A stretch of DNA of 64,000 nt from an uncultured Oscillospiraceae bacterium. Its GTDB lineage: Bacteria; Bacillota; Clostridia; Oscillospirales; Acutalibacteraceae. Under the pieces are notes generated by a model. The model ran no database searches, was not told the origin of the DNA, and was given only the letters and a program-made list of their open reading frames with translations. Positions 55,518 through 56,028 of this stretch are shown piece by piece. The stretch covers positions 7,651-71,650 of the forward strand of contig CASFRX010000024.1 in the NCBI GenBank assembly GCA_949297075.1, given 5' to 3'. The stretch's first letter is position 1. Each line of letters opens with the position of its first letter. The translations under genes were made by a program, and so were the position numbers.

Positions 55518-55673
55518 TTAAAGGAAAAGACATAACTTTTTTTGCGGATCGTAATGTTCCGCCTGCAACTGTAAAATGCTTCTGTATTCTGATTCGCTGA
55601 TCAGCCGCATGGACAGCAGAAGGCGGAGCATATTCACTCCATAGGCAAGGGCGATGCCGTTTTTATCATTCAT
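55518..55673 (-). CDS. 51-aa protein translationally coupled to mazF (MNDKNGIALAYGVNMLRLLLSMRLISESEYRSILQLQAEHYDPQKKLCLFL)
   Basis: Translated by hand. Its ATG lies inside the last codons of mazF (..CAGGAGGCGCGCCATGAATGA), and that GGAGG can serve as its RBS. Not in the ORF track. Confidence 0.5.
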   Translation of the reverse strand: MNDKNGIALAYGVNMLRLLLSMRLISESEYRSILQLQAEHYDPQKKLCLFL

Positions 55674-56028
55674 GGCGCGCCTCCTGTTTCATGCCGAGGC
55701 TGACGCTCATGGCGGATTCTATCCGATGCATATCCTCTGCGGAAATCTGTCCGAGCCGGTCGGACAGACGCTTTTTGTCAATGGTGCGAAGCTGTTCCAG
55801 TAGGACAACCGATTCGCTCTCCAAAAAATCGTAGTCAATAAAGATATGGGTAGGCTGCGATCTTTTCTTCGGCACGGAAGTGATGGGAGCAACAATGGTT
55901 GTAGAACTGAATTTATTGCCGGTGTCGTTTTGAAGAATGAGAACCGGACGGATGCCGCCCTGCTCGCTGCCGACAACGGGGGATAAATCGGCGTAATAAA
56001 TTTCGCCGCGCTTGATTGTATTGGTCAT
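55666..56028 (-). CDS. mazF: MazF/PemK-family endoribonuclease toxin (EndoA-like)
   Basis: [30 protein letters not shown]...[13 protein letters not shown] is near-collinear with B. subtilis EndoA/NdoA. GGAGG sits 8 nt upstream of the ATG. Confidence 0.9.
   Translation of the reverse strand: [120 protein letters not shown]

Follow-up and report, generated by a model that had tools for sequence, protein, structure and literature searches.

The classic type II mazEF pair joins an endoribonuclease toxin to an adjacent protein antitoxin, MazE or PemI, of the ribbon-helix-helix (RHH) or AbrB type. A solitary toxin is known from Myxococcus xanthus, where MazF-mx is neutralized by MrpC. Bacillota genomes carrying mazF only, with no adjacent antitoxin, have also been described, and their control was explicitly left unresolved (bioRxiv 10.64898/2026.08.06.743204). 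A further recorded partner of these toxin genes is the pemK RNA motif (Rfam RF02913, type Cis-reg), a model of 61 positions. The motif reportedly belongs to the set of 224 candidate structured RNAs described by Weinberg et al. 2017. Rfam-related papers name it as having additional covarying pairs; pemK is not mentioned in the main text of the 2017 paper, full-text searches for 'pemK motif' returned nothing, and a literature search for pemK/RF02913 yielded no paper discussing the function of the motif. Here we analyze a mazF (pemK) gene within a 64-kb stretch of DNA from an uncultured Oscillospiraceae bacterium (contig CASFRX010000024.1), the whole of which is called the window below. The gene has no MazE partner, heads an operon of serine-recombinase genes at what appears to be one end of a mobile element, and follows a long structured leader containing the pemK RNA, making the locus a member of a known but uncharacterized pairing, that of pemK RNA with pemK. 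We favor the reading that this is an antitoxin-less MazF under RNA control in cis, where the leader would attenuate transcription and the toxin would cleave its own 5' untranslated region (5'UTR); we hold this tentatively, at a little short of an even probability.

The gene product is the "very typical MazF/EndoA" that an earlier note on this DNA had described. It matches the Pfam PemK_toxin family PF02452 over the whole domain (residues 6-109; E=7e-34, 116.7 bits against a cut-off of 23.1), and the solved structures of B. subtilis EndoA and B. anthracis PemK at E~1e-35. Alignment of 20 MazF homologues (58-93% identity) with 4MDX and 4HKE reveals R27, T50 and the GSEQGG and LLEQxRTxD segments to be invariant, such that both catalytic and RNA-binding segments are intact; R27 (Arg) and T50 (Thr) are the residues that we take, from the EndoA structure paper, to be catalytic. 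Nothing suggests an inactivated enzyme, and the window MazF is predicted to be a catalytically competent EndoA-type RNase.

The adjacent protein antitoxin of a type II pair is missing from the window locus. Exactly 486 nucleotides (nt; 56029..56514) separate mazF from the preceding gene, and the open reading frames (ORFs) within this gap are short (34-48 amino acids, aa) and non-conserved. Seven bona fide RHH MazE proteins from related loci and one unverified upstream ORF (L046) served as the MazE query set, and profile (hidden Markov model, HMM) and tblastn searches for MazE gave no match across the entire 64-kb window. None of the element-type mazF homologues examined has a MazE beside it, and since MazE is missing from the window and from every close homologue alike, its absence here is not a recent deletion. 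The earlier note was thus right that the 486 nt hold no credible antitoxin frame, although the gap is not the featureless stretch its account left, because RF02913 lies inside it. A 168-aa ORF on the plus strand (56012-56518) was rejected as coding, being non-conserved and antisense to the conserved leader. ORFs of 128-236 aa are likewise called antisense to or inside the leader in relatives (L095 4465..4851, L097 4339..4851 and L098 3667..4377, all on the minus strand); these and the window ORF 56012..56518 (+) are most likely annotation artefacts over structured RNA.

Chromosomal mazF homologues (L016-L094; 56-63% identity, mostly from metagenome-assembled genomes of Oscillospiraceae and other Clostridia) present a separate observation. 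Approximately 70 of 80 such loci have no adjacent MazE ORF (e.g. L020, L032, L036 and L058), one example of the arrangement being alr-mazF with a 100-nt gap, and a canonical RHH MazE was found only at L024, L039, L069, L087, L090, L091 and L092. The four chromosomal loci scanned with Rfam (L016-L019) contain no pemK RNA. These loci bear on the proposal that the window MazF is neutralized in trans, by a cross-reacting chromosomal MazE or by an unrelated protein such as MrpC. The closeness of the toxin to canonical EndoA (E~1e-35) is in keeping with a shared antitoxin, cross-neutralization between non-cognate MazEF pairs has been reported (PMC10893535), and the preprint on mazF-only Bacillota leaves a non-adjacent regulator open (bioRxiv 10.64898/2026.08.06.743204). 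Set against this are the absence of any MazE-like ORF within the window, the scarcity of adjacent MazE among the sampled Clostridia chromosomes, so that a host MazE may not exist, and the consideration that a mobile element that changes hosts cannot depend on the MazE of one host. Neutralization in trans also leaves unexplained a mazF-linked hexamer in the leader, described below, and we regard it as distinctly unlikely.

What the gap does contain is a conserved leader RNA. The window sequence scores 40.0 bits against RF02913 (gathering score 34.8, E=3e-5), and in nine relatives the score ranges from 40 to 69 bits. Between the end of the core and the mazF ATG, which follows on the same strand, lie 172 nt, placing the core in the 5' region of pemK as the family describes. 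In the window, L001, L009 and L012 the alignment is limited to positions 13-57 of the 61-position model. The window copy has other sequence in place of the 5' AUAAUGAUACUU segment and lacks the full consensus including the closing pair; full-length matches occur at L104, L100 and L095. The three hairpins of the model show strong covariation across 44 sequences, and RNAalifold applied to a MAFFT alignment recovered the Rfam core alone.

Conservation extends well beyond this core. Among 57 non-redundant leaders, belonging to MazF proteins of 41-94% identity, conserved blocks run from a promoter-like box to the mazF ribosome-binding site (RBS) with insertions and deletions restricted to stems, and the TTCCTTGA(A/C)AAC box (window 56441..56436) is among the most conserved of them. 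No good sigma-70 -10 element follows the TTGAAA box. An additional long-range helix, P1, pairs 56412..56397 (CTTTCCGCCTGCTGTC) with 56327..56312 (GACAGGCTGCGGAAAG), and compensatory variants of it elsewhere include CCTTCTGC/GCAGAAGG, CCCATTG/CAATGGG, ACCGCTGT/ACAGCGGT, CTGTCCA/TGGACAG, TGACGA/TCGTCA and more. Duplex energies of P1 compared with shuffles are not discriminating (median z=0), and when own partners were compared with those of other loci the own partner fell in the better half at about two thirds of loci. At the 3' end, the hairpin segment 56110..56056 folds at -23.7 kcal/mol, and the 111-nt region that holds it (56025-56135) at -37.2 kcal/mol with z=-3.8. A hairpin occupies the equivalent 3' position in 28 of 30 anchored leaders, and in more by eye, with wholly different stem sequences. 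The conserved pemK RNA is thus much larger than its 61-position model, since it also includes a further closing helix with covariation, a hairpin at the 3' end and a hexamer of MazF type. It places a terminator-like hairpin and U-run ahead of the ORF that would be regulated, as in an attenuator. Regulated attenuation by the leader is plausible from this arrangement.

The leader is not confined to mazF. When metagenome contigs were scanned with an exact pattern for nothing but the RNA core, 120 loci were retrieved, 86 of which have mazF 123-622 nt downstream, all but four of these within 320 nt. A first pass found 23 loci with enough room and no mazF within 1 kb; a stricter recount over the 107 loci with room gave six with mazF 400-2500 nt on and 22 with none within 2.5 kb. 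In loci lacking mazF the RNA is followed by SHOCT_2 and a serine recombinase (L202, L157 and L206; L184 by position), by a small resolvase-domain protein with SHOCT_2 and a recombinase (L123, L132, L142 and L154), by an HTH_17 excisionase and a tyrosine integrase (L109, L192, L195 and L209), or by ParB-like genes (L121 and L145). We conclude from these gene orders that pemK RNA would be the leader of a recombination operon in which mazF is a frequent but optional first gene.

This distribution bears directly on the proposal that the leader is itself a type III-like antitoxin, sequestering MazF or serving as a decoy substrate. Every element-type mazF examined does have the RNA upstream and no protein antitoxin, and a large structured leader, terminated or cleaved to a form ending in hairpin-UUUU, would be stable. 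Nevertheless, the same RNA precedes mazF-less recombinase operons (22/107), Tandem Repeats Finder detected no ToxI-like tandem repeats in 55950-56600, the core contains no UACNUA (the only MazF-type site lies outside it, 3' of the hairpin), and the Rfam class is cis-regulatory; taken together these make an RNA antitoxin highly unlikely. The earlier note had named the upstream RNA among its candidate neutralizers, which pointed in the right direction; the mazF-less loci argue against a dedicated RNA antitoxin.

As a side observation, the leader appears, from alignment, to be a recombination breakpoint between module lineages. Four relatives (L104, L105, L185 and L194) are ~92% identical to the window from 51290-51380, depending on the locus, up to ~56303, past which both their 5' leader and their sigma-like gene are different ones; elsewhere among the relatives, ~88% identity persists through 57096.

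The feature that links leader to toxin is a box, UUUUAC(U/A)UA, located directly after the 3' hairpin at a median distance of 20 nt from the mazF ATG, with UUUUACAUA as the variant in a minority of loci. Its hexamer corresponds to published MazF targets: the motif of B. subtilis EndoA is the strict 6-mer U^ACAUA (PMC11780869; bioRxiv 10.64898/2026.08.06.743204), and a second motif of S. aureus MazF is U^ACNUA, tested as UACUUA (bioRxiv 10.64898/2026.08.06.743204). In the window, UACUUA lies 20 nt upstream of the ATG and is predicted to be single-stranded. The occurrence of UAC[A/U]UA in the 3' leader follows mazF closely, with 76/79 leaders having it where mazF is adjacent, 6/6 where mazF lies 0.4-2.5 kb downstream and 3/22 where there is no mazF (Fisher p=1e-14; 26/28 vs 1/14 in the non-redundant set, p=5e-8). 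About two of the 79 would be expected to have the hexamer at its fixed position by chance, and elsewhere in the leaders the motif occurs at six sites in 31.4 kb. The remainder of the operon is poor in such sites. A single UACNUA, namely the box, and zero UACAUA are present in the 5.1-kb window operon transcript (56440..51288). Across the coding regions of 33 non-redundant mazF operons, 13 UACNUA were observed against 38.7 expected from synonymous-codon shuffling, compared with five against 5.1 in six mazF-less operons. This depletion is suggestive, as is that of the 5-mer UACAU in the pooled operons (33 observed, 49 expected). Messenger RNAs for the sigma-like protein or the repressor gave no mazF-specific signal for MazF sites.

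A reading without RNA self-control would take the box as a terminator U-tract combined with a translation or stability element, and MazF as a stabilizing or defensive passenger. The box does adjoin a terminator-like stem, mazF and its 5'UTR could travel as one cassette, and the MazF enzymes tested cut UACUUA weakly at best. Against these points, the hexamer is kept while the adjoining stems have wholly diverged and MazF identity falls to 41%, and what is kept is an exact, experimentally defined 6-nt motif at one fixed position. Leaders lacking mazF end in ordinary U-runs or in none. We consider the passenger reading unlikely.

Under the cis-controlled reading that we favor, MazF would be the first product of the operon and be made only when the recombinase operon is transcribed. 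The leader promoter, which the neighboring sigma-like protein may serve, and the terminal hairpin would together keep expression low, with the hairpin limiting read-through into mazF and the recombinase genes unless a signal or factor intervenes. Any read-through mRNA would expose one MazF-type hexamer, UACUUA, between hairpin and RBS, and MazF could cut its own 5'UTR there, leading either to self-limitation, the outcome we favor, or to maturation of the operon mRNA. Since UACUUA is weak for the enzymes tested, the site would act as a ceiling reached at high MazF levels, that is, as negative feedback; a serious alternative is that the cut matures an operon mRNA with few sites otherwise. A 6-mer-specific MazF has recently been reported to be a non-lethal transcriptome remodeler in B. 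subtilis (bioRxiv 10.64898/2026.08.06.743204), which makes an antitoxin-less arrangement more plausible. The biological purpose might be, for example, a transient growth arrest or transcriptome remodeling coupled to excision. A stricter version, in which a purely cis-safe MazF relies on a leader that gates transcription, on cutting the hexamer in its own 5'UTR and on an operon mRNA otherwise purged of sites, is possible but more doubtful.

Several points weigh against cis control. S. aureus MazF cuts UACUUA only weakly, and the B. subtilis and Listeria enzymes leave it uncut (bioRxiv 10.64898/2026.08.06.743204); the published motifs that the box matches may not be those of this MazF clade. The coding-region depletion of UACNUA reaches only about the 5th percentile of all hexamers, among loci that are mutually related, and depletion of UACAU in the window alone (2 observed, 3.1 expected) is not significant. 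The link between box and mazF could in part reflect joint inheritance of the gene with its own 5'UTR. Comparison of own- and cross-partner duplex energies revealed no covarying partner for either hairpin arm that would form a mutually exclusive antiterminator, and the 3' hairpin could be a stabilizer or processing element rather than a terminator. From sequence we infer that transcription terminates, that MazF cuts at the box, which sign the feedback has and what biological purpose it serves; the toxicity of MazF from this locus is predicted, and an antitoxin encoded outside the 64-kb window may act in trans.

The remaining candidate for a neutralizer is the 51-codon ORF that the earlier note had correctly placed as starting inside the last mazF codons, and had proposed as a reverse-order antitoxin. 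Its start lies within the mazF stop region (GGAGGCGCGCCATGAATGA), with GGAGG 6 nt upstream, and the frame stays open across relatives. The product matches SHOCT_2 (PF20612) marginally, at 24.9 bits against a cut-off of 24 over profile positions 17-47 of 53; an iterated HMM recovers the SHOCT_2 family in 64 small ORFs and ties the window mini-ORF to clear members at 65-67 bits. Translational coupling would co-produce toxin and neutralizer, in line with the 8-nt overlap with its own RBS, with overlaps of 4, 8 or 11 nt in 30 of the 39 loci having both genes, and with the absence of any other small conserved protein gene from the module. The two genes nonetheless occur independently of one another. 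SHOCT_2 is found next to recombinases without mazF (L123 and L154 at 65-67 bits, L202 at 29 bits, L132, L157 and L206), and it stays beside the serine recombinase where a 164-aa resolvase gene parts it from mazF (L102, L170 and L175). Conversely, mazF occurs without SHOCT_2 ahead of Xis-like and tyrosine-integrase genes (L115, L143, L207 and L126), and in L115 and L143 the Xis-like gene overlaps the mazF stop just as the window mini-ORF does. The mini-protein has no similarity to MazE. Because each of SHOCT_2 and mazF occurs without the other, SHOCT_2 belongs with the serine recombinases and not with mazF; the mini-peptide-antitoxin idea is very probably wrong, and we give it hardly any weight. 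By its position, SHOCT_2 can reasonably be viewed as a putative recombinase accessory, possibly a directionality factor, filling the slot that Xis takes in tyrosine-type versions, and the overlap with mazF would then reflect operon compaction, not toxin-antitoxin pairing.

Two side observations concern these genes. In a decayed copy at L015 (5950..6500), mazF is split over two frames; the SHOCT_2 ORF behind it is intact, and a fragment of a recombinase comes next. Upstream are conjugation genes and a transfer-messenger RNA but no pemK RNA, and the contig carries the label Bacteroides sp. CAG:927, possibly through a binning error. At L207, L126 and L215, one or two tyrosine-recombinase-like genes (212 to ~385 aa) were seen by eye behind pemK RNA and mazF, which would add a third kind of recombination module to those that follow this leader.

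All features of the mazF module lie on the minus strand of the window, and their coordinates are collected in Table 1.

Table 1. Coordinates of the mazF module and its leader in the window.
Feature	Position	Strand	Basis
rec3, large serine recombinase, ORF from first ATG	51374..53071	-	CcrB-like/XisF-like NCBIfam matches
rec2, middle 'recombinase', 328 aa	52872..53858	-	PF07508 only
rec1, large serine recombinase (Resolvase + Recombinase + Zn ribbon)	53860..55410	-	Pfam
SHOCT_2 mini-protein gene, 51 aa, overlapping the mazF stop by 8 nt	55518..55673	-	PF20612
mazF / pemK / EndoA-type endoribonuclease gene, 120 aa	55666..56028	-	PF02452 match
Structured 5' leader of the operon, ~385 nt, from 5' strand of helix P1 to mazF start codon	56029..56412	-	Conserved blocks
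mazF RBS, GGAGG	56041..56037	-	Sequence
Box UUUUACUUA directly after the 3' hairpin	56049..56057	-	Conserved; hexamer UACUUA 56054..56049
Terminator-like GC-rich hairpin, 3' end of leader	56056..56110	-	13-bp stem, then U's
RF02913 pemK RNA core, three hairpins	56201..56254	-	Rfam scan
Promoter-like box (TTCC)TTGAAA(AC), probable -35 of leader promoter	56436..56441	-	Conservation; promoter role inferred
Terminator-like hairpin closing the sigma-like gene	56466..56496	-	14-bp stem, then T-run; kept in related leaders
Sigma-70 region-4 / extracytoplasmic function (ECF)-like small sigma-factor gene, first gene of module	56515..57048	-	TIGR02937 E=1.7e-10

The gene order of this module is conserved. 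Among relatives compared by gene order (MazF proteins P0002, P0006, P0013, P0043 and P0096, 63-93% identical to the window MazF), a sigma-like gene is followed by a non-coding gap of 486-660 nt, by PemK, usually by a SHOCT_2 ORF of 50-76 aa, and by three serine-recombinase genes in the order full-length, domain-less, full-length, while the flanking cargo differs. Dozens of independent gut-metagenome contigs share this order together with its spacing and overlap, and the arrangement is therefore not a matter of chance. The claim that mazF heads the excision/integration operon thus stands, the linkage of mazF, mini-ORF and recombinases is conserved in public contigs with varied cargo, and the option that MazF acts as a regulator tied to recombinase expression points the right way. 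Also borne out is the description of three same-strand recombinase genes, the first beginning 107 nt after the mini-ORF, except that the second has no catalytic resolvase domain. Both rec1 (CcrB/CcrC/XisF-like, under equivalog cut-offs) and rec3 carry all domains; a 280-333-aa protein without the Resolvase domain occupies the rec2 position in all related operons, and rec2 may be a non-catalytic subunit. The NCBIfam CcrB-like and XisF-like matches of rec3 begin at about residue 50, and its true start is probably 53008 (an ATG with a GGAG RBS) or 52900. No terminator-like sites were found between the rec genes on the operon strand.

Homology of the window to related contigs extends from 57096 to 51288-51297 and then stops, suggesting that 51288-57096 is a 5.8-kb end-module, for regulation and recombination, of a Clostridia-type integrative element and that 51288-51297 is likely the element end. 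Of the 87 loci with enough sequence, 63 have a sigma-like homologue 200-500 nt ahead of the RNA core; the window protein scores under the cut-off of Pfam Sigma70_r4_2. PADLOC assigned MazF, SHOCT_2, the sigma-like protein and rec2 to no defense system, and plasmid and phage collections gave unannotated or marginal matches only. Beyond the sigma-like gene, the window has a divergent XRE-type helix-turn-helix (HTH) gene (57501..57824, +), and in relatives L102 and L104 an ImmA-like Peptidase_M78 gene accompanies the HTH gene, which points to a possible repressor of the ImmR/ImmA type that would feed into a sigma factor encoded by the element and, through it, into the leader promoter. Opposite the 3' end of the HTH_3 gene, and overlapping it, lies a Cys_rich_KTR (PF14205) ORF (57682..58101, -) of 139 aa; its domain accounts for residues 8-59 only, and the real gene is probably much shorter.

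If cis control is correct, a self-limiting MazF pulse, producing a growth pause or transcriptome remodeling, would be coupled to the expression of excision/integration genes; a classic type II toxin would then be regulated by a new design, and the orphan pemK RNA family would gain a function. The conserved leader and its candidate self-targeting hexamer make the control of solitary MazF directly testable. More broadly, the pemK motif looks like a leader of gut-Clostridia mobile-element excision/integration operons, of serine or tyrosine type, and does not look toxin-specific, while SHOCT_2 mini-proteins gain a candidate role beside large serine recombinases. These elements bring varied cargo to human-gut bacteria, such that the logic of their induction bears on gene flow in the microbiome. 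Three points appear to be additions to the literature found: the link between the RNA and recombination modules, the association of SHOCT_2 with serine recombinases, and the mazF-linked hexamer.

Comparison with described systems places the locus between several of them. It resembles RF02913 in having a core above the gathering threshold, three hairpins and a same-strand position upstream of pemK/mazF; it differs in that the conserved RNA is larger than the model and also precedes recombinase operons without pemK. It shares with the canonical mazEF/ndoAI-ndoA loci (B. subtilis EndoA, S. aureus and C. difficile MazEF) a close toxin homologue with identical catalytic and RNA-binding segments. 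In contrast to those loci, the window mazF has no upstream RHH MazE, lies outside the alr-mazEF-rsb context, and follows a 400-nt leader as the opening gene of a recombinase operon on a mobile element. An endoribonuclease toxin behind a non-coding RNA and terminator, with no protein antitoxin, recalls the type III system ToxIN; this locus differs in lacking tandem RNA repeats, in having MazF rather than ToxN as toxin, and in an RNA that is also found without the toxin.

Among mobile elements, the regulatory region of Tn916 comprises the HTH repressor gene orf9, the sigma-like orf7, orf8, xis and int. The window resembles it in the succession of an XRE-type HTH gene in divergent orientation, a gene for a small sigma-70 region-4 protein and the excision/integration genes, and some pemK-RNA loci hold Xis (HTH_17) and a Tn916-like tyrosine integrase. 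To our knowledge, Tn916 carries neither mazF nor pemK RNA. The C. difficile element 023_CTn2 is listed with the gene order of the window module, its entry in Table 1 of PMC6814731 running sigma-70 ECF, PemK/MazF, hypothetical protein and serine recombinase. Streptococcal integrative and conjugative elements have serine-integrase triplets at their ends (Ambroset et al. 2016, PMC4701971), resembling the three co-oriented serine-recombinase genes at the element extremity in the window; as that paper presents them, all three carry the Resolvase domain, whereas the middle protein of the window does not. The passages of PMC4701971 and PMC6814731 on these genes do not discuss the RNA, the missing antitoxin or the mini-protein. 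With the solitary MazF genes this locus shares the lack of an adjacent antitoxin, and it differs from them in that its mazF resides on a mobile element, where a conserved cis RNA and a self-site suggest a concrete mechanism.

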